64,000 nucleotides of DNA from the NCBI RefSeq assembly GCF_000027125.1, contig NC_017626.1; one strand, written 5' to 3'. Under the pieces are notes generated by a model, which worked only from the letters and a program-made list of their open reading frames with translations, made no database searches and was not told the origin of the DNA. Below are positions 34,098 to 60,746 of this stretch, one piece after another; position 1 is the stretch's first letter, and every line of letters begins with the position of its first letter. The DNA comes from Escherichia coli 042. GTDB lineage: Bacteria; Pseudomonadota; Gammaproteobacteria; Enterobacterales; Enterobacteriaceae. Both the position numbers and the translations under genes were made by a program.

Positions 34098-34553
34098 GGG
34101 AGTTCTACCGCAGGGGCGGGGAACTCCAAGTGATGTCCATCATCGCATCCAGTGCGTCCGGTTTATCCCCGCTGACGCGGGGAACACACATGAATGTCGG
34201 TTCAGACCGTGTTTTTACCCGGTTTATCCCCGCTGGCGCGGGGAACACTCGTCGGCGTCTTCACCCGTCGCATAACGCTGCGGTTTATCCCCGCTGGCGC
34301 GGGGAACACTGCCAGCGTGTCGGCGTGCGTTTCGCGCTGCCCGGTTTATCCCCGCTGACGCGGGGAACACTCGATCGATAGCTGCGCGATACCTGCGGGG
34401 ATCGGTTTATCCCCGCTGACGCGGGGAACACGGCAGCTATCGAGGCAGTTATCGAGCGTCGCGCGGTTTATCCCCGCTGACGCGGGGAACACCAAAGGAC
34501 ACCGGGAGGCACCCGGCACCGCAGCGGTTTATCCCCGCTGACGCGGGGAACAC
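34098..34553 (-). CRISPR. type I-E CRISPR array: 8 repeats (the iap-proximal one degenerate), 7 spacers of 32 nt
   Basis: 29-nt repeat cggtttatccccgctg(a/g)cgcggggaacac at 34159, 34220, 34281, 34342, 34403, 34464, 34525; degenerate copy at 34098..34126; 61-nt period. Confidence 0.95.
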
Positions 34554-34649
34554 ACTAAGCATACATAACTGTTTTTAAAAAAATTTATTCCGCATCAACA
34601 ATCTACCAACTAAATTAAAACATTTCCTTATTTTTAAAGAACAGATAAC
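34554..34649 (-). promoter_or_regulatory. CRISPR leader (AT-rich, contains conserved motif acaatctaccaact)
   Basis: AT-rich non-coding segment between last repeat and cas2; motif at 34599..34612 recurs at the same distance in the second leader. Confidence 0.8.
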
Positions 34650-35859
<1,210 letters not shown>

Positions 35860-35863
<4 letters not shown>

Positions 35864-36510
35864 GCCTCTGCTCCGGGTTTGATCAGCATCAGACCACAGC
35901 CGAACGCGCGGCTTTTGCCATACCCCTGGCTCAGACGTTGCAGAAATAACCCAGGATCGGTGACCGTAAGCATCCCCGTATAATCCACGCTACAGAACTG
36001 GATCAGTTGCCGGGAGTTTTCCCGCCGCAGTTGCTGTTGTCGGTAGGCATCGACCGAGGTATCCAGTAGTGTAAAACCGCTTCTTTCCCCCTGCGCTGCC
36101 AGCCAGTCCAGCGCCGCCTGTTGTTGATGCAACCAGACATCACGCCCTTCCGCCTGCCCCCTCACCTGCCGTTTCGCCTCTATCAGCAGATCGTGGCGCT
36201 TACCCGCTTTACAGACTGTTGGATTCGCCCGCAGGTTGAAACAAAGGGATTGTCCGGTACGCAGCTCCGGCGCAAATGACCGGCATTCGATGGTGAACGT
36301 ATCACTTTCCGCCGGGCGTTCCTGCGACAGGACAAAAAAGCGAAACGCGCCCTGGAGTTCTTCCCGACGATAAAGAAATTGCCTTTCTTTGCCACCCGGG
36401 AAAAGATCCCACAGCCACTGATGCATCACATATTCACCGCGATCCACCAGATGCAGCAACTGCGCAGGCGAAAGCTGGCCGGTATGTAAGGTTATTCTTG
36501 AGAGGTACAT
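35860..36510 (-). CDS. casE: CRISPR pre-crRNA endoribonuclease Cas6e (CasE)
   Basis: Likely start MYLSRITLHTGQ (track ORF 35860..36648 is an upstream extension); C-terminal G-rich loop GYGKSRAFGCGLM. Confidence 0.88.
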
Positions 36511-37238
36511 GGTTCCTCCTTGCTGAGCCACGGCCCCTGATTGACGGTGCGTTCCCCAAACAGCCACTGCTGGCGATTTAAAGGAACATCCCGGCGGCGC
36601 AATATTTTGCTCGCGACCAGGCCGTCGTGCTCCCCTTCCCACCAGCATTCATCCTGAAGTTTCGGGAGTGAGACTTTCAGTTCGTGGAAACGATCCTGAT
36701 ACTGTTGGTATGCGTTACGTAAGACATCAGACGCGTTGCCTTCGAGCAGTAACGGCGCAAGTGGTAACGCCAGCGGATGACTTTTTCGCCCCAGATAAAG
36801 CGGAAAAACCGGATGACGTAAATCTTCCTGCAACTGTTCGAGGCTGTAAGGCGCATCGGGGGTTGTTGCCACCGCCACCATCCACCAGGCGTCGGTGTAA
36901 TAGTCGCGCCGGGAGATAATCGCGCTTAGCAGTTCAAGATTACTCAACTCTTCGCGACGGCTGAAATAACGCGCTTTACGCACCTCTTTTGGCATCTGGA
37001 CCGTGTGATAATCCCGTGCCCAGCGCGGGTTACGGCTGGCGCAAACCACCAGTGAATAGTGGCGATTAAACGCGTTTAAGCGTTCGGTATCATCACGCCG
37101 AATCCCTACCCCGGCAGCCAGCAGCCCCAGCAATGCTGAGCGCGAAGGCAGTTCATGGGTATGACGCACTTCACCGGGGGCATCGACGCCCCAGGATGCC
37201 ATCGGCCCATGAAGCTGAAAAATTAGATATTGGCTCAT
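36492..37238 (-). CDS. casD: Cascade subunit Cas5e (CasD)
   Basis: 248 aa; N-terminal MSQYLIFQLHGPMASWG typical of Cas5. Confidence 0.88.
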   Translation of the reverse strand: MSQYLIFQLHGPMASWGVDAPGEVRHTHELPSRSALLGLLAAGVGIRRDDTERLNAFNRHYSLVVCASRNPRWARDYHTVQMPKEVRKARYFSRREELSNLELLSAIISRRDYYTDAWWMVAVATTPDAPYSLEQLQEDLRHPVFPLYLGRKSHPLALPLAPLLLEGNASDVLRNAYQQYQDRFHELKVSLPKLQDECWWEGEHDGLVASKILRRRDVPLNRQQWLFGERTVNQGPWLSKEEPCTSQE

Positions 37239-37248
37239 AAGCCGCCCC

Positions 37249-38304
37249 TTACGCGCAGATAAAGTCCAGCACGTCCTTCATGCTTCCCTGTTTGTTCATC
37301 ACGTCAAAACTTGTGTAATCGGTCTTCTGTTCGTAAACCTTATTCATGTTTTCGCGAAGCGTCGTAATACGCTGCACCGCTTCATCTAACTGCCCGGTGC
37401 CGTTAATGGGTTCATAAAAAGCCGCCGCCAGAGAGCGCGGTTGTTCGATACCTTTTTCTGCCATCGCCCAGGAGGCGTAGGCACGACTGGCAAAGCTGTT
37501 TTGTTTACCGGTTGGGGAAACTTTAAACGCGGCTTCCGTAAAGGCGCGCAGGGTCTGATTAGCCAACGCTTCGTCTCCGCCGAGGTTTTCTACCAACAGA
37601 TCTTTATCAATGCAGATATAGGTGTAGAAAAGTGCTGAACCGAATCCGGTTTCACCAAGATGCCCGGCACCGGCATCTTCAGAAGCCTGGCGCAAATCAT
37701 CAACGGCGGTGAAAAAATCATCTTCGACAATCGTTTCACTGACACCAAACGCATGCGCAACCTGGCAGGCGGCTTCAACATTAAACTCGGGTTTATTCGC
37801 CAGCATACGACCAAACATAGCGATATCTACCGCCATGCGATCTTTACGTAACAAAGCGAGATCTTCCTCTTTTGGCGCGCGCTTTTCTTCGGCCAGTTGA
37901 TGGGCCAGCGCTTTTACGGCGTCAAATTCTGCCGGGCTGATATGGACTAGCTGTTCAGTTTCGGCGTTAGTGAGCGGATCTTTTGGTTTTTTGTCGTTTT
38001 TAGCTTTCCCAAGATAATCCGCAATTTTTGCCGCCCATTCGATGGCTTTTTTCTCTTCGATGCCTTTCTCAATCAGGATAGTTGCCGCCTCACGCGCAAT
38101 ACGCCCACTGCGAATACCAATATGGCCCGCCAGTGCCTGTTCAAAATGTGCAGAAGTGCGCCACGCACGTTTCAGACTTTGTGAGGAAACGCGCAGACGC
38201 GTTGCTCCACCCAGTACCACAGTTTTTGGCGCACCGGTGTCATCACGGTTAAGGTTGGCAGCAGGGTAAGCGGTTAACAAATGAAGCTGAATAAATGTCG
38301 TCAT
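37249..38304 (-). CDS. casC: Cascade backbone subunit Cas7e (CasC)
   Basis: 351 aa; MTTFIQLHLLTAYPAANLNRDDTG typical Cas7e N-terminus. Confidence 0.92.
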   Translation of the reverse strand: MTTFIQLHLLTAYPAANLNRDDTGAPKTVVLGGATRLRVSSQSLKRAWRTSAHFEQALAGHIGIRSGRIAREAATILIEKGIEEKKAIEWAAKIADYLGKAKNDKKPKDPLTNAETEQLVHISPAEFDAVKALAHQLAEEKRAPKEEDLALLRKDRMAVDIAMFGRMLANKPEFNVEAACQVAHAFGVSETIVEDDFFTAVDDLRQASEDAGAGHLGETGFGSALFYTYICIDKDLLVENLGGDEALANQTLRAFTEAAFKVSPTGKQNSFASRAYASWAMAEKGIEQPRSLAAAFYEPINGTGQLDEAVQRITTLRENMNKVYEQKTDYTSFDVMNKQGSMKDVLDFICA

Positions 38305-38318
38305 GAGATAGTCCTTTA

Positions 38319-38855
38319 TTAATTTTGTTCGTTATCGGCGTCGCCAGCCTGGTAATATTCCAGCGCCCAGCGGATACGGATAAATTCTGTTGGCCGCTGC
38401 TGGCGGCGGTGATGATTGAGCAGATCGTCGCTCTCCTGGCACCAGCGGAAAATATCGTCTGCCAAAGAGATAAGATTGACGGAACCATTTAATAATTTGA
38501 CCGCGCGACGTAACTGGCGCAGTAATTCATCCGGCGTTTTGACTGCCGACAGGCGAGTAAAACGCCCCTCAGACATTACCGCCGCCAACTGCGCGGCAAA
38601 AAGCTGCCGTTCATCAATGGCTTTTACATTGGCGGCAACGGCGGCAACCAGCGCCAGTGCGGTAAAACGCCACTCCTGTGATTCAATTTTCCACAACGTG
38701 TGGGTCTGCATCAGCAGAGAACGAAACCCTTCTGACAGACAAACATCATTAACCGTTGTGCTACGCCGCAGACTGGCACGATTGCCTCGTTTTTCCTGCA
38801 ACTCTTCGTGCCATTTACGCAGCGTGGCTTTGTGCTCCTCTTTTACAATACTCAT
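38319..38855 (-). CDS. casB: Cascade small subunit Cse2 (CasB)
   Basis: 178 aa alpha-helical, Arg/Lys-rich ORF between cas7e and cse1. Confidence 0.85.
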   Translation of the reverse strand: MSIVKEEHKATLRKWHEELQEKRGNRASLRRSTTVNDVCLSEGFRSLLMQTHTLWKIESQEWRFTALALVAAVAANVKAIDERQLFAAQLAAVMSEGRFTRLSAVKTPDELLRQLRRAVKLLNGSVNLISLADDIFRWCQESDDLLNHHRRQQRPTEFIRIRWALEYYQAGDADNEQN

Positions 38856-40420
38856 TCAGCAGCCTCCTGCTTTTTCTCCCTGGCGGCTTTAGCACTTTGC
38901 TTCTCCGCCGATGTTGTAAAATATTTCTTGCGCGCGGTCATGACGCGTTTCAAATCAACGGGCTCATAAGGATTAGTGAATACACGCTCGTCAAAATCCT
39001 GACGCGCGAATAACCAAATTTCCTTTTGCCATTTGCCGAGTAATTCATCCGCATCCTGACCTTCTTCAATTTGGCGCACTAACCTCAGGAAGCGATGCTG
39101 AGTTTTGTTCCAGAAGTCGATATCCACAAAACTAAAATCACCCCGAGCACCTTTTGGATCGGAGAACCAGGCTTCTTTCAATGCACTCCGTAACAGACTT
39201 AGAATCCGTGAAGCCGTTTGCGCAACCAGCCGCAGCTTCGGTATCTGGCCTTCTTTTTTATTGAGCAGCAGCGGGAAATGGTGTTCGTACCAACAACGGG
39301 CTTTCATGTTGTCAAAATCATAACCAAATCCCCACAGGCCCACTTTTGTCTGCTTCAGACTGCTGGCATTAAAGAGTTTCACCACCAGCGCGGGAAGTTC
39401 CGTATTGTTTTCTGACTTACCCGTTTCGATAAGACCTAACCAGTCGCGCCAGATTAAACCGCCCGGTTGTGGTTTAACGGAGTAAAACTCACCGCCCTCT
39501 TTAAGTGGTACACGGTAAGGCGTTAAGGGATGCTGCCACATGGCATAATTCGCACCATAATTTTTGGTCGTCATCAGGCTCAGGAGCGAGTCATTCTGCT
39601 CGCCGCAAATATCGCAGTTGCCGACTGTCGTGGTATTAAAATCAATACGAATACGCCGCGGCATTCCCCAGTACGCCTGGAGTTTATTGACCTGATCATG
39701 GGTTACCACCGCACCGGCCAGTTCGCTGGTACGCGTCGGGCCAAGCCAGGGGAAAATCAGATCGTCAAATTTTTTGGGTAGCGGTAAGTCGGCTTCATCC
39801 TGCGGCATCACATTGAGCCACAGTTTGCGCCACAAGGGTGTTTGTTGATTGCCCTGATATTCCTGTAATTCAATCAGAGTGGTCATCGGCCCACCGCCGC
39901 GTAAACCGGTGCGATAGCCTTTGCCGCCTGACGGCGCATTTAACTGTAGGGAGAACAGAGCTAACGCAGAACAATGTGGGCACAGGTATTCCGTTACACC
40001 ACGCTTGATAAAGTGGTCTTTATTAAACTTCGTTGTTTGAGCGCCGGGAATCTCAGGCAGTAGCGAAGCGACCGGAATTTTATCTCCGGTGAGCGCCTCG
40101 AAATCCTGCATAAATGAAGGGGAATCTGGGCCAAACTGGAAAGCATGTTCTAAAGATAGCAATGCTTCCCGTAGCTTTTCAGCTTCCAGTCCGTCTTCCC
40201 AGATATCATCCCAACGACGATGATCTTTTGGCGCGAAGCTGGTTTGTAGTAGCCCCAGCAAAAACTGCCACGCCGCTCCCTGGAGATCTGCCCGCGGCGC
40301 AGCGATATCGACAACATTTTCATCCGCCAGATCGACTGGCGCCAGTTTGCCTGTTGTTCCGTCTTTAAAACGAACGGGCAACCACGGGGTTGTCAGAAGT
40401 GAAAACGAGTTCATACGCAT
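38852..40420 (-). CDS. casA: Cascade large subunit Cse1 (CasA)
   Basis: Track ORF 38852..40483 begins at TTG; first ATGs are 21-23 codons in (MRMNSFSLLTTPWLPV), giving about 522 aa. Confidence 0.85.
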   Translation of the reverse strand: MRMNSFSLLTTPWLPVRFKDGTTGKLAPVDLADENVVDIAAPRADLQGAAWQFLLGLLQTSFAPKDHRRWDDIWEDGLEAEKLREALLSLEHAFQFGPDSPSFMQDFEALTGDKIPVASLLPEIPGAQTTKFNKDHFIKRGVTEYLCPHCSALALFSLQLNAPSGGKGYRTGLRGGGPMTTLIELQEYQGNQQTPLWRKLWLNVMPQDEADLPLPKKFDDLIFPWLGPTRTSELAGAVVTHDQVNKLQAYWGMPRRIRIDFNTTTVGNCDICGEQNDSLLSLMTTKNYGANYAMWQHPLTPYRVPLKEGGEFYSVKPQPGGLIWRDWLGLIETGKSENNTELPALVVKLFNASSLKQTKVGLWGFGYDFDNMKARCWYEHHFPLLLNKKEGQIPKLRLVAQTASRILSLLRSALKEAWFSDPKGARGDFSFVDIDFWNKTQHRFLRLVRQIEEGQDADELLGKWQKEIWLFARQDFDERVFTNPYEPVDLKRVMTARKKYFTTSAEKQSAKAAREKKQEAAE

Positions 40421-40511
40421 CCTCTCGTAAAAAAGACCATCCCAGGTCGGTTGTCCATCATTCCATCCTTTTGGGTGTATCAACTATTCAGAGAGCCCTG
40501 TCGCAGGCATC

Positions 40512-43169
40512 TCAACCAACCTTGCCAGTCAATCCTTCCATAGCCGAATACCCGCAACTTTCGTCATCGGTGACTAAAATCACGTTTGCCATCTCCGGAT
40601 CTTGCCGCTGTTCAATGCACCACTGCCTGAACGCATCCCCTTCCAGTAAAGAAAACTCATCCCGATGTTTTTTCCACCAGCTTCGACGCACTCTGACAAC
40701 GCTCATTTCCCATGCGTGAGCACCGGTGGCATAAGGCTTCACCACACCGTCAATACAGGTAGCCAGCCACAGGGAAACAGATTCCTCAGCCAGACGTGTC
40801 GACAGCTTTTCCGGAAGGTAATCGTTGATATTGGCGGCATAGCCAGGCTTGAAGTTCAGGACAAACTTTTTAGCCATTGCGCGATCGCAGTAATATTTGC
40901 CCACTTGCTCCTGCTCACTGCGGGCAAATCCTTCCGGCATTGCCACGTCTTCACCGTAGACTGATTCAATAAGAAGCCGGGCTGCGTGTGGCATCTGAAT
41001 AGCGCCTTGCTCACGCAGCACACGCTGCGTCAGCCAGATTCGCCCATGATCGGGGTAGACATATGCACTGTTACGCATGGCGCTGCCAAACCATTCGTCA
41101 CCCGGAGAGTCATCCCAGACGGGAGCCAGAATCAGCAATTCAGGAGGGGAACGCTCATCTTTTCCGTCACGCTTTAACTGACCATTAATATCGCGGATAT
41201 GCCGCTGTAATCGCCCCGCCCGCTGGATTAGCAAATCAATGTGGGCCAGGTCGGAGATCATTTCGTCCAGGTCACAATCGACGCTCTGCTCTAATACCTG
41301 AGTACAAATAAGGACTTTTCCGGCACGCTGTGAGTTACCTTCTTTACCAAAGCGTGCCAGCGTTTCCGTTTCAATTCGCTGGCGATCGCTAAAAGCAAAG
41401 CGGCTATGAAAAAGTGAAAGGCTGGAAGCGGGAATGACGCCGCGGGCAAGCAGCTGACGATGAACCTTAATAGCGTCATCGACAGAATTCCGGATCCAGG
41501 CGATGCATTTCCCCTGACTTACCGCCGATTCGATATGTGCAATACATTCTTGTTCGCTATGAAGCCAACCCACACACACGTTGCGCTCAACTTCTTTGCG
41601 CGTCGCTACCCGGTGCGAATGCAAATCGGATTTCGTGACATGCGTCAGCCATGGGTAATCATCCTTTTCAAGGAACGGAGCTTCTTGTTGGCCCTCTGCA
41701 CCACGCGCAAAGGCAGCGACGAGTTTGTCGCGCTGCTGTTGAGATAACGTAGCAGAAAGCAAAATGATACTGTTTCCGCCACGCGCCTGCCGCTCAATCA
41801 ATCCTTCAAGAATGCACGACATGTAAGCGTCACAGGCATGGATCTCATCAGCCAGCAGGATTTTTTTACTCAACCCCAGAAGCCGCAGATTATTATGTTT
41901 GAACGGCATCACCGCCATCATCGCCTGATCCAAGGTGCCGACGCCAATTTCAGCCAGCAACGCCTTCTTGTTACTGTCGGCAAACCAGGCCGCACATCCC
42001 TGGCTGAACGCTTGTTCATCCGGTTCTTCTGACCCGACTAAATCACCGGACCAGAGTGATTCATTGAAGCGGTCCATTAATGTATGGGCACTGTGTGCCA
42101 GCACCAGGCTGGGGCGGGATTCTGGCGAATAGAAAGCAAGCCAGGTTTTGACCAGCCGATCGTACATGGCATTGGCCGTTGCCATTGTTGGCAGGCCAAA
42201 AAACAAACCCTGAGCTTTCCCCGCAGCCATCAACCTGTGGACCATGATAAGCGCTGCTTCTGTTTTACCTGCGCCAGTCACATCCTCCAGAATAAATAAC
42301 TGTGGCCCAGGCTGGCTGATATCCAGATCCAGTACCTTTTGCTGTAACGGTGTCGGGTGCTCAATAAAAGGAAACAGTGTATTAATTCCGGTGAAAGGCG
42401 CGGTTTGTGCTTTTGGAGGAAAGACGGTTAAGGCGTTTTGAGCCTGAACTAAAGCCTTCTGCCAGTAATCTTTAATATCCATTGCCTGTGCAACGCGTGG
42501 AAAAAACCGCGTTGACGATCCCGTCCAGTCTGCGAGTACGACGGTTGCAGAGATATACCAGGAAAGTTGTTTTATAAGTTCAACGCCCTCGTCATCATCC
42601 CAGAATGTGGGGATCTCGATGAGCGGGAACAGTGTCTTGATTGCAAGGAGAAAATCTCGTGCGGCAGCTTTGTCTTCAGGCAGAAAATTATCCAGTTCAT
42701 CCATACGATCAGGAGGCTGACCATGATGCCCGGTAGTCATGGGCATCCACATCTCTATTACCCGTTTAAGTTTGCGGGGAGAGAGTGAAGATGAAGGAAG
42801 CAACTCTTCACATTCAATTAAATAATGATTCCACAACCAGTAGCCCAGCGTTGAATGAGAGATCTTTTCGTAATTTTTTCTTGCACTTTCCGGAACCTTG
42901 AGCTGTGGGTGCAGGTAAAGTTGCTGAAAAGAGCGGGCAAATTTTCCAGTATCGTGCCAACACAGCAACCAGGCGAAAAATTGTGCTGCCTGCTCCGTGT
43001 CAGCGATACCTAATTGACGAAAATAGTCAGCCAACCCGAAACAGTTGTTTTTGACCATTAAATAACCCGTCGCGGCTACATCCAGCGAATGCCAGCAAAG
43101 TAGATGATAGTCGTCGCCGCCCTCTTTCTCGCCACGTCGGGTTTTTCCCCAGAAATCAAAGAAAGTCAC
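40512..43169 (-). CDS. cas3: CRISPR-associated nuclease-helicase Cas3 (HD domain + SF2 helicase)
   Basis: 885 aa; N-terminal HD motifs (LCWHSLDV, HDTGK), Walker A GAGKT, DEAH-like LADEIH. Confidence 0.95.
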   Translation of the reverse strand: MTFFDFWGKTRRGEKEGGDDYHLLCWHSLDVAATGYLMVKNNCFGLADYFRQLGIADTEQAAQFFAWLLCWHDTGKFARSFQQLYLHPQLKVPESARKNYEKISHSTLGYWLWNHYLIECEELLPSSSLSPRKLKRVIEMWMPMTTGHHGQPPDRMDELDNFLPEDKAAARDFLLAIKTLFPLIEIPTFWDDDEGVELIKQLSWYISATVVLADWTGSSTRFFPRVAQAMDIKDYWQKALVQAQNALTVFPPKAQTAPFTGINTLFPFIEHPTPLQQKVLDLDISQPGPQLFILEDVTGAGKTEAALIMVHRLMAAGKAQGLFFGLPTMATANAMYDRLVKTWLAFYSPESRPSLVLAHSAHTLMDRFNESLWSGDLVGSEEPDEQAFSQGCAAWFADSNKKALLAEIGVGTLDQAMMAVMPFKHNNLRLLGLSKKILLADEIHACDAYMSCILEGLIERQARGGNSIILLSATLSQQQRDKLVAAFARGAEGQQEAPFLEKDDYPWLTHVTKSDLHSHRVATRKEVERNVCVGWLHSEQECIAHIESAVSQGKCIAWIRNSVDDAIKVHRQLLARGVIPASSLSLFHSRFAFSDRQRIETETLARFGKEGNSQRAGKVLICTQVLEQSVDCDLDEMISDLAHIDLLIQRAGRLQRHIRDINGQLKRDGKDERSPPELLILAPVWDDSPGDEWFGSAMRNSAYVYPDHGRIWLTQRVLREQGAIQMPHAARLLIESVYGEDVAMPEGFARSEQEQVGKYYCDRAMAKKFVLNFKPGYAANINDYLPEKLSTRLAEESVSLWLATCIDGVVKPYATGAHAWEMSVVRVRRSWWKKHRDEFSLLEGDAFRQWCIEQRQDPEMANVILVTDDESCGYSAMEGLTGKVG

Positions 43170-43380
43170 AATGTTTTTATCCTTCAGTAAAACTTAAAGG
43201 ATATTTACGCATATATTAAAAATTATCTGTGATATATATCGTTCAATAAAACATTTACATTATGAATAATCAAATAGTTTTCATCCGTAATATATATGAA
43301 TAATAAACATAGGCATAATATTCACATAAACAATATAAATTAAAAAAGGGTGCAGGAGACCAAACCATCACAATTCAGTA

Positions 43381-43402
43381 CGCGGGGTTTTACCCCCGCG
43401 TG
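43381..43402 (-). terminator. GC-rich hairpin immediately 3' of the hok-like ORF
   Basis: acgcgggg-tttta-ccccgcgt perfect 8-bp stem starting 6 nt after the stop codon. Confidence 0.5.
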
Positions 43403-43407
43403 GTGGC

Positions 43408-43560
43408 TACTTCTTCGATTCGTAAGCGAGAACTGCCTTAAACTCCATACCACGTTCTCTGATACTCAACTCACACAACGAGTCGCCTACCATCAGCGTG
43501 AATCCCAGTACTGTACAACACAGTACGATGATTGCCACAAGGGCATATTTTGTCAGCATG
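43408..43560 (-). CDS. hok: Hok/Gef-family type I toxin (small membrane peptide)
   Basis: 50 aa [50 protein letters not shown]; matches Hok/Gef pattern (TM helix, SLCE, AYES); GGAGG 7 nt upstream of ATG; below the 60-aa track cutoff. Confidence 0.8.
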
Positions 43561-43769
43561 TCTTGCCTCCCTGCAAAGAAGAGACTAACATTCGAATTGC
43601 TTAGGTTCGAACGCTGGCCTCAGGTTGATTGAAATATCGCCTGGGGCTTTTGTCCATCTGGAACCTCGCGAATGCTTAACGCCAGACAGCCTCAAGCACC
43701 CAACGCCATTCTATACCTGTTAATTTTCCCTGCGATGTTCACCTTTAAATGCCGGAATGCTGCTCGCAA

Positions 43770-56519: not shown

Positions 56520-56837
56520 AGTTAGCTCCAATTTCCGTAAGGCAAAAAAAAAGAAAGGTAACTTCCCCCGCGAGAGGGAAGTTACCTTTCTCATTATCTC
56601 TGGTAACTGGAGATAATTTTTATCATAAGGGCATAATCGCTAATGTGATCGTAATCACAGTGTTATATTCGAATTGTCAAATAATTTTAAAAAGCAGAAG
56701 CGTGATTACTCTCACACAACACCACTGCTTTCCATGTTATTTCTTATTGCAATTACTAGAGACCTGAGAAAAGTAATCCACCTGAAAGGGCGGCTTACTT
56801 TTCTCTTTTTTTTGTCTATTACAAATGGGAATACGAT

Positions 56838-59620: not shown

Positions 59621-59666
59621 GTGAGGAAGACCGGGCGGGAAACTGCCCGGCCTGAACATACCTGAA

Positions 59667-59804
59667 TGGTTATCCCCGCTGACGCGGGGAACATAAGTTC
59701 GACAACTTAAAAAATGATAACAAGTCCGGTTTATCCCCGCTGATGCAGGGAACATAATAAAAACTTTAACTAGTTCGGTTTATCCCTGTTTTTACAAGGA
59801 ATAT
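59667..59804 (-). CRISPR. degenerate CRISPR remnant (3 decayed I-E repeats)
   Basis: tggttatccccgctgacgcggggaacat, cggtttatccccgctgatgcagggaacat, cggtttatccctgtttttacaaggaatat, separated by 32-nt and 20-nt spacers. Confidence 0.7.
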
Positions 59805-60257
59805 TAACTACACTCGATGTCTTTAGAATAAAAGACAATACGAATCGCACTTTATCAATTTTCACTTAAAGTATGAACTGGATATCTTTATTCATAAGAA
59901 CTATTCATCAACAGCGTATAGAGGCGATTATGTAAAATCACTCATTAGCCTCAAAACAAAGACAAATTTCCAGATTTATTACTTAATCAATGAATAATAA
60001 GCTTAAAAAATACACTGTTATTCTAAAGAAAAAATTAACAGGCATTAATTAATATTAAAAAAATAATATATTAAAATTTCTTAACGATTTAAGAATCATA
60101 CAAATAACACTTTGATTAAATTTAATTTTTTGTATCGATAATTGTGAACTTCTCTGGCATGGAGAACTATTTTGAACATGAGGTGTTACGTGGATATGTT
60201 GCTTATTACAAGTACTGCTAATATAAAAACTTGAGAAAGAGATAACGGGTTATATGG

Positions 60258-60408
60258 TGGTTTATCCCCGCTGGCGCGGGGAACTCTTGGCATAGGCGCT
60301 ATAGCGGCGCTCTGTGTCCGGTTTATCCCCGCTGACGTGGGGAACTCAAAGACAAATTTCTTTGTTCCTATGGCCAGACCGGTTTATCCCCGCTGGCGCG
60401 GGGAACTC
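60258..60408 (-). CRISPR. second type I-E CRISPR array: 3 repeats, 2 spacers of 32 nt
   Basis: Repeats at 60258, 60319, 60380 ((t/c)ggtttatccccgctg(g/a)cg(c/t)ggggaactc); 61-nt period. Confidence 0.9.
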
Positions 60409-60540
60409 TCTAAACATAACCTATTATTAATTAATGATTTTTTAAGCCAGTCACAATCTACCAACTTTACAGTATCACACAAACAACACATCCATTATGT
60501 TAAAGAGCATTTAATCCATTGATTAAAAAGATAAATATTT
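60409..60540 (-). promoter_or_regulatory. leader of the second CRISPR array
   Basis: AT-rich; motif acaatctaccaact at 60453..60466, 45 nt from the last repeat, matching the first leader (46 nt). Confidence 0.75.
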
Positions 60541-60746
60541 GAAATAACTCTATTCAAACTAAAATCTACCAAATTTCACCGCAATAATTTTCACTCCAAC
60601 GAAAAATTAACGCCATAAAATTTGTAGAGAATGATAATGATTAGTTCAGGATGGGCAAAATGGAGGTTTTTCAGAGGCGACAAAGAATATAAATGAGTAG
60701 AAGTCTTTACAGGTTCCACCCATTTATAACGCTTATAAATGTTTAA

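Follow-up and report, generated by a model that had tools for sequence, protein, structure and literature searches.

The locus considered here raises the question of what a strongly AT-rich stretch of DNA, lying directly upstream of cas3 in Escherichia coli 042, belongs to and what it controls. A preliminary description took this stretch for an H-NS nucleation site that silences cas3 and, given a compact junction to the next gene, the whole cas operon. The surrounding window (the whole stretch of DNA that was analysed, 64,000 nucleotides) carries, in order, cysJIH, hok/sok, cas3, casA-casB-cas7-cas5-cas6e-cas1-cas2, a CRISPR array and iap, with gene names and annotation taken from the 99.9%-identical record NZ_CP018957. 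Every cas gene is on the minus strand, as judged from the open reading frame (ORF) list and the annotation of the matching record.

The CRISPR-Cas system of the window is type I-E, of the non-K-12 "cas-E1" variant, and its Cas3 differs from that of K-12; by protein search it belongs to the lineage of Salmonella, Citrobacter and Klebsiella (69-74% amino acid identity). The strain K-12 carries cas-E2, not cas-E1 (Almendros et al. 2014, PMC3903273), and the primer cas3E1-R of the same source near-matches 43118..43137, supporting the E1 identity of the cas3 in the window. This cas3 (40512..43169, minus strand) is an uninterrupted ORF of 885 codons from a GTG start. It is followed by a 97-bp spacer of 49% GC (40415..40511), the tightly packed genes for Cascade and adaptation (casA to cas2, 34650..40414), the AT-rich CRISPR2.1 leader (34554..34649), which includes a promoter-like site of 9.2 bits, and the CRISPR2.1 array, in which repeat detection finds seven repeats (34160..34553). 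In the otherwise 99.9%-identical record Ecol_316, the array has five more spacer-repeat units (305 bp), so the window derives from another isolate.

Boundaries and ownership of the tract

The AT-rich tract (43170..43340) sits at the outer end of the cas module, between the 3' end of the hok mRNA (~43341) and a cas3 GTG start codon (43169..43167, minus strand) that is conserved across genera. In the cas-less strain PU-1, iap is followed by ~60 bp and then by an identical hok locus; the tract is absent, and homology to the window starts exactly at 43340/43341 in the alignment. A search of 5,426 genomes places the boundary at the same position: where this cas variant is missing, the match starts no earlier than 43341, and in K-12-type genomes it is confined to the hok 5' region. 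In K-12, hok is cut right after its ATG and an unrelated 91-bp cas3 upstream region follows. The tract, absent from cas-less and K-12-type genomes, thus forms the outer end of the cas-E1 module as an intergenic region specific to this variant, and belongs neither to hok nor to the backbone.

An intergenic element termed IG4 is reported to be invariably linked to cas-E1 (Almendros et al. 2014). The tract is probably this IG4, an identification made by position and linkage. The cas-E1 5' junction is found in 2,768 of 5,426 complete genomes (2,625 and 143 with the two alleles described below for the cas3 start), compared to 1,181 with a K-12-type junction.

Composition of the tract

The AT bias directly upstream of the GTG-initiated cas3 ORF is real. 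The 171 bases of 43170..43340 include 34 G/C (19.9% GC, 80.1% A+T), whereas the window has a mean of 52.0% GC with a standard deviation of 6.6% for 171-bp windows (tract z ~ -4.9). The bias is thus extreme, but a tract in which one base in five is G or C is not "almost devoid of G/C", as had been stated. The initial span of 43170-43380 is likewise too generous: it holds for 43170..43340, but 43341..43380 is not AT-rich and represents the hok mRNA 3' end. The island is 171-176 bp long in flanking DNA of ~50% GC, and the lowest-GC 100 bp near it (17% GC) are at 43248..43347. It is the second-lowest-GC locus in the 64 kb, with 66 of the 63,830 windows of 171 bp ranking below it. TpA steps, which go with flexibility and a narrow minor groove, are four-fold enriched in the tract (0.171 vs 0.043 in the window), and ten AnTm tracts of at least 4 bases are present.

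The sole locus of lower GC is 59974..60144 (15.8% GC), in the intergenic region of CRISPR-II. The CRISPR-II locus (59660..60740 of the window) lies between ygcE and queE, holds the most AT-rich stretch of the window and includes three intact repeats (60259..60408) and degenerate ones at ~59670..59800. The three lowest-GC loci of the 64 kb are all in CRISPR-Cas regions, and the K-12 equivalent of the ygcE/queE region is listed as an H-NS-associated promoter island (PMC3661553).

The short A/T tracts had been described as phased; however, no helical phasing is detected in the tract, as the AA/TT power at periods of 10-11.25 bp (0.30) is below the shuffle mean (0.51) and is reached by 74% of shuffles (p=0.74). 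Unusual curvature is also not detected by a wedge model: the maximum within the tract, 19.6 degrees, is reached or exceeded at 7% of window positions, and mean curvature is 9.3 in the tract vs 10.5 in the window.

Promoter content and conservation

Promoter-like sites are denser in the tract than anywhere else in the window. With a threshold of 4 bits, a position weight matrix (PWM) scan detects 42 of them in 301 bp, whereas 300-bp chunks elsewhere average 6.8 and hold 40 at most; the density arises largely from base composition. The best match in the tract (8.4 bits) is ordinary, the window mean of the best match per 300 bp being 7.1, and a strict sigma-70 consensus scan finds no site in the tract. 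Since the PWM sites are many and weak and none is outstanding, the transcription start site (TSS) is not fixable from sequence.

Conservation narrows the choice. In an alignment of eight sequences of the tract, pairwise identity climbs towards cas3, from a mean of 63% in the distal 60 bp (43281..43340) to 83% in the next 68 bp (43213..43280), 93% in the 43 bp before the GTG and 96% in the first 30 nt of cas3. Indels and rapid change mark the distal half, which is deleted in Escherichia sp. L007. The conserved proximal half (43213..43280, minus strand) includes a candidate core promoter of 6.9-7.0 bits, with a -35 element (TTTATT/TTGAAC) at 43250..43241 and a -10 element (GATAAT) at 43227..43222, the latter being the only candidate -10 to keep A2 and T6 in all eight aligned sequences. 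The cas3 TSS is accordingly predicted at ~43213-43215 on the minus strand, and the tract almost certainly holds the cas3 promoter.

A CRP site in the tract was looked for and rejected. The only matches have 3 mismatches (43228..43243 and 43311..43326), and the window as a whole shows no excess of such matches, with 189 where chance alone predicts 210; one TGTGA half-site (43228..43232) is conserved. A pattern shared with C. rodentium and Salmonella (CATAAT..TTGA..ATCACA) was seen by eye and set aside, as it has no statistical support. The ygc gene region of the window has two CRP-like sites 57 bp apart (56644..56659 and 56701..56716), of which one is the perfect consensus (TGTGATCGTAATCACA) and the other has a single mismatch.

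Silencing by H-NS

The high-affinity motif of H-NS is said to be TCGATAAATT or tCG(t/a)T(a/t)AATT, reportedly from work of Lang et al. in 2007. Within 43170..43345, TCGATAAATT has no match at up to 2 mismatches and TCGWTWWATT has none at up to 1 mismatch. The curvature and H-NS motif scan by which a nucleation site was to be recognised thus returns ordinary curvature and no high-affinity motif match in the tract. What stands of the proposed nucleation site is its composition, with 80% A+T over 171 bp and four-fold TpA enrichment as in H-NS-silenced AT-rich promoter regions, and what falls away is the motif, the phasing and the curvature. A tract that is 80% A+T, TpA-rich, crowded with promoter-like sites and conserved towards cas3 fits a cas3 promoter and 5' untranslated region (5'UTR) likely to bind H-NS.

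The precedents from related systems are mixed. The cas3 unit of S. Typhi is reported to be silenced by H-NS (Medina-Aparicio 2017, via PMC8039139), and K-12 cas3 is repressed eight-fold by H-NS in stationary phase (PMC4782391). The K-12 casA/cas3 and ygcE/queE AT-rich regions are H-NS-bound "promoter islands" (PMC3661553). The promoter of K-12 cas3, by contrast, depends mainly on CRP for activation, and deletion of hns affects it only slightly in exponential phase in LB (Yang et al. 2020, PMC7019758). Almendros et al. warn that conclusions from K-12 may not apply to E1 (PMC3903273), and in the literature searched no regulation, expression or ChIP study of cas-E1 was found. AT-rich DNA is also present upstream of cas3 in Salmonella and C. 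rodentium (lowest 100 bp 23% GC). The E1 island is short (~175 bp) and has flanks of normal GC, so the spreading of H-NS from it may be limited. By analogy with these systems, silencing of the tract by H-NS is plausible.

Taken as a whole, the explanation that is favoured, with a fair margin of doubt, is that the tract is a variant-specific cas-E1 intergenic region that provides the cas3 promoter and 5'UTR and is coated by H-NS. The boundaries of the tract, its link to cas-E1, its composition and the rise of conservation in the direction of cas3 are demonstrated here. Under this explanation, the tract forms the end of the cas-E1 type I-E module between the resident hok mRNA 3' end and the cas3 GTG, with a core promoter presumed to lie in the conserved proximal block (-10 GATAAT at 43227..43222, TSS ~43214). 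The TpA-rich, 80% A+T DNA with its overlapping weak promoter-like hexamers would be coated by H-NS, possibly with StpA alongside, and the coat would keep cas3 transcription low until a LeuO-type antagonist or changed conditions relieve it. More speculatively, transcripts started in the tract may run on into casABCDE12.

Another account holds the tract to be an ordinary weak promoter and spacer, in which the AT bias reflects foreign origin and relaxed constraint, cas3 expression is low and constitutive or of a CRP type, and H-NS has no meaningful role. The fast, indel-prone evolution of the distal half, the missing H-NS motif, phasing and curvature, the conserved TGTGA half-site and the example of the CRP-activated, barely H-NS-responsive K-12 cas3 promoter (PMC7019758) all speak for it, and about one chance in four is left to it. 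However, 20% GC over 170 bp is far outside the normal composition of E. coli intergenic DNA, the CRP-pattern match has 3 mismatches and is of a class found at chance frequency, and H-NS action on cas3 is precedented in both S. Typhi and stationary-phase K-12. An H-NS-coated cas3 promoter and 5'UTR is retained as the preferred reading.

The cas3-casA junction and control of the operon

Silencing of the whole operon from the tract had been argued from the compactness of the cas3-casA junction. The distance from cas3 to the annotated casA ATG (40414) is 97 bp, not the 28 bp implied by a TTG-initiated ORF. The gap differs widely among related loci, with 414 bp in K-12, 424 bp in one Salmonella type, 495 bp in C. 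rodentium, 11 bp in the common Salmonella type and 97 bp in E1 (a scan of genome contigs with Cas3 peptides gave five loci, and the Salmonella and Citrobacter loci were found by protein search followed by contig look-up; the upstream intergenic length of Salmonella L014 is left out, as its gene table appears inconsistent with the sequence upstream of cas3). The E1 spacer keeps only ~55 bp, next to casA, that resemble the long spacer of a Salmonella relative. As E1 is without the long AT-rich cas3-casA spacer of K-12, the tract and the CRISPR leader (21% GC at 34561..34660) are the only two strongly AT-rich islands of the locus.

The same lack of a long spacer makes control of the whole operon from the tract possible. 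A terminator after cas3 is not detected in a consensus scan, and the spacer folds no better than shuffles (z -1.2). With no canonical terminator, a non-significant fold and no AT patch, read-through from the cas3 promoter into casABCDE12 is plausible. By contrast, the spacer includes a promoter-like site of its own (TTGATA-15-TGgAATGAT, 8.5 bits, predicted TSS ~40450), as good as any in the tract, and a weak, long imperfect stem followed by a T6 run (40434..40429), either of which could uncouple casA from cas3 expression.

These features bear on the reading of the locus as a single operon, in which a single transcript from cas3 to cas2, possibly with the CRISPR array, arises from the tract as its one H-NS-gated promoter, and silencing of the tract shuts down all of cas-E1. 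The loss of all but 97 bp of the spacer, the resemblance of the remaining ~55 bp to the long Salmonella spacer, the lack of an AT-rich patch near casA and the missing terminator are in its favour. The spacer promoter-like site and T6 run count against it, as does S. Typhi, where, across a gap of 11 bp, cas3 and cse1-to-CRISPR are reported as separate units (PMC8039139) and the latter is reported to be under its own LeuO/H-NS/Lrp control. A single operon is on balance improbable, at between one chance in five and one in four. Its evolutionary form, in which spacer loss in E1 moved control to the tract and left one H-NS-gated promoter, a single cas3-casABCDE12 transcript and a leak by read-through from hok, is put at the lower end of that range. 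If it were true, E1 strains would regulate Cas3 and Cascade together, as K-12 does not, read-through from the constitutively transcribed hok could leak into the operon, and regulation in most E. coli would not follow the paradigm taken from K-12.

In one Salmonella type and in C. rodentium, the long spacer between cas3 and cse1 (L014 and L015, 5150..5260) opens directly behind cas3 with a GC hairpin, after which come two sequences that resemble CRISPR repeats, the one good and the other degenerate. The C. rodentium spacer encodes a CreTA module of toxin and crRNA-like antitoxin (PMC12055562), and the CreTA-type spacer region is lost in E. coli cas-E1 and the common Salmonella type.

In K-12 (cas-E2), H-NS and LeuO act on the 414-bp cas3-casA spacer (PMC4782391 and PMC3903273). 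Almost all knowledge of E. coli CRISPR-Cas regulation comes from K-12, yet E1, the commoner junction, is without such a spacer. This contrast of architecture makes the tract the prime candidate for the control region of the majority E. coli CRISPR-Cas variant. If it is that region, it is the obvious place to test the apparent silence of CRISPR-Cas in natural E. coli, including O157:H7.

The start codon of cas3

The part of the tract nearest to cas3 is read here as untranslated, in conflict with the reference annotation. In most E1 strains, RefSeq has cas3 start within the tract, at the ATG that corresponds to 43212, and so annotates a protein of 899 aa. The allele with this ATG in frame (T3) is found in 2,625 of 5,426 genomes and the T4 allele in 143. 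The window has the latter: one extra T (T4 at 43189..43192) throws the 43212 ATG out of frame, and the ATG opens only an 11-codon mini-ORF (ATG..TAA, 43212..43177, minus strand). The supposed lack of an ORF in the tract is thus to be qualified, since it holds this mini-ORF in the window and the RefSeq cas3 ATG in 2,625 E. coli. Because of the extra T, the cas3 of the near-identical record is labelled "frameshifted" by RefSeq, a label found on cas3 in every T4 record whose RefSeq annotation was checked.

Several findings point to the GTG at 43169 as the true start. The GTG and the Shine-Dalgarno sequence that precedes it (AAGGA, 43184..43180, minus strand) are kept in E. albertii, Intestinirhabdus, C. 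rodentium and two types of Salmonella, all of them without the ATG extension, and Cas3 homologues are 880-892 aa in length. In the divergent E. coli L009, the upstream ATG is likewise out of frame. The T4 allele occurs on at least four divergent cas3 backgrounds (dS 0.16-0.27), and all T4-bearing alleles are intact 885-codon ORFs with a dN/dS of 0.13-0.15, the same as in T4-versus-T3 comparisons. In view of the GTG conservation, the homologue lengths, L009 and the dN/dS of ~0.14, the cas3 start is therefore read as GTG at 43169. The "pseudogene" call is probably an artefact of an over-extended reference protein, the gene being probably intact, and 43170..43212 is best read as 5'UTR.

The opposing view, in which 43170..43212 is coding, cas3 starts at the upstream ATG (its product beginning MRKYPLSLLKDKNIV) and the window cas3 is a frameshifted pseudogene, agrees with the RefSeq annotation of the 99.9%-identical record and with the greater number of genomes that have the in-frame allele, but it has perhaps one chance in ten. 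The upstream ATG is without a Shine-Dalgarno sequence and lies ~3 nt from the predicted TSS, whereas the GTG has one and is conserved without the extension in the relatives named above; the recurrence of T4 on divergent backgrounds with intact ORFs and a dN/dS of 0.13-0.15, and the out-of-frame ATG of L009, weigh in the same direction. With the GTG as start, ~143 complete genomes have a cas3 that is labelled "frameshifted" and is probably intact, which affects surveys that count functional CRISPR-Cas systems.

The hok/sok neighbour

The hok/sok locus beside the tract (43341..43720) looks complete. It includes a promoter -10 element (TAGAAT), a sok-family 5' region (Rfam sok RF01794 at 43544..43701, 109.6 bits against a gathering threshold of 59), a Hok coding sequence (43559..43407, annotated as a 50-aa Hok/Gef protein) and a 5'-3' fold-back. 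The hok mRNA (43341..43701, minus strand) is assigned to the backbone, outside the cas module, by the Rfam match, fold and annotation; its 5' end (43701) pairs with the 3' end at ~43347-43362, which is followed by a U6 run, in both the minimum free energy and centroid structures (z -2.9). The preliminary description had the hok locus begin immediately beyond the tract. The two do adjoin; however, hok is on the same strand as cas3 and is transcribed towards it, hence the locus ends, and does not begin, beside the tract. Although the tract directly adjoins the hok mRNA 3' end and its U6 run, its assignment to hok/sok as a terminator or 3' flank is refuted for practical purposes, as cas-less strains keep an identical hok locus without the tract, the alignment stops exactly at 43340/43341, the hok mRNA lies wholly outside the tract by both Rfam match and fold, and Rfam at a permissive threshold finds no family in the tract, only sok beside it.

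The hok locus is interrupted in other strains. In K-12, the cas-E2 module truncates hok directly behind its ATG. Some T4 lineages of E. coli have an IS4-family, IS421/IS186-like element in the GC-rich hok 3' hairpin, with a 12-bp duplication; the insertions (~1480..2820 in L017 and L018) are just outside the AT tract. This agrees with the hot spot for IS186 that Almendros et al. 2014 describe (PMC3903273). The same flanking sequence as in the IS-bearing L017 and L018 is also found in E. albertii L010, upstream of ~1640. A loss of hok in E. albertii L010 was considered and dropped, as the data suggest an IS421/IS186-like insertion in the hok 3' hairpin instead.

Comparison with known systems

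The tract has no significant homology to characterised cas regulatory regions, with all z at most 2.4 against the K-12 IGLB and cas3 upstream regions, the Salmonella and C. rodentium cas3 upstream regions or cas3-cse1 spacers, the CRISPR leader and the CRISPR-II AT region. A match of TAATGTAAAT...TTGAACG to the spacer of Salmonella L014 (blastn E 0.008) fell to z 1.7 and was discarded.

The presumed mechanistic model is the K-12 IGLB, which includes Pcas; H-NS silences it and LeuO lifts the silencing (Pul 2010 and Westra 2010, via PMC4782391 and PMC3903273). Like the tract, IGLB is an AT-rich island in a type I-E locus (lowest 100 bp 18% GC). Unlike the tract, it is 414 bp long, separates cas3 from casA and serves as promoter region for casABCDE12, not for cas3, and the two have no detectable similarity (Smith-Waterman 18.0 vs a shuffle mean of 19.1, z -0.4). 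The K-12 cas3 promoter (PMC7019758) is closer in position, as it drives cas3 from DNA between a hok/sok remnant and cas3; however, it is 91 bp long with 34% GC, has a footprinted CRP site and a slight H-NS effect, and is unrelated in sequence (z 1.0).

The S. Typhi locus resembles E1 in the lineage of its Cas3 (69-74% identity), its GTG start, its AT-rich cas3 upstream region (23% GC minimum) and its very short cas3-cse1 gap. Its cas3 upstream region differs in being 441 bp long and shared with the divergent sopD, the similarity to the tract is not significant (z 0.6), and its cse1 operon is reported to have its own promoter (PMC8039139). Promoter islands, which are horizontally acquired, H-NS-associated DNA (PMC3661553), share with the tract an AT-rich composition and an extremely close packing of promoter-like sites that overlap one another (Panyukov and Ozoline 2013, PMC3661553), with the density of the tract determined by a simple PWM and not by the algorithm of those authors. 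The listed islands are 304-468 bp long, and the tract, at 171-176 bp, is shorter than the ~300 bp by which such islands are defined.

The counterpart closest to the tract itself is IG4, which also lies between hok/sok and the E1 cas3, is found only with cas-E1 and is absent in cas-less and E2 strains. In its source (PMC3903273), IG4 is used as a marker of module exchange and is assigned no function. To this the present analysis adds the exact boundaries, the ownership by the cas module, the rejection of phasing, of a nucleation motif, of an ORF-free tract and of a very compact junction, the likely mis-annotation of cas3 and the contrast in architecture between E1 and K-12. By analogy, the tract appears to work most like the H-NS-controlled AT-rich promoter regions of type I-E loci, and it is a feature of an expected kind.
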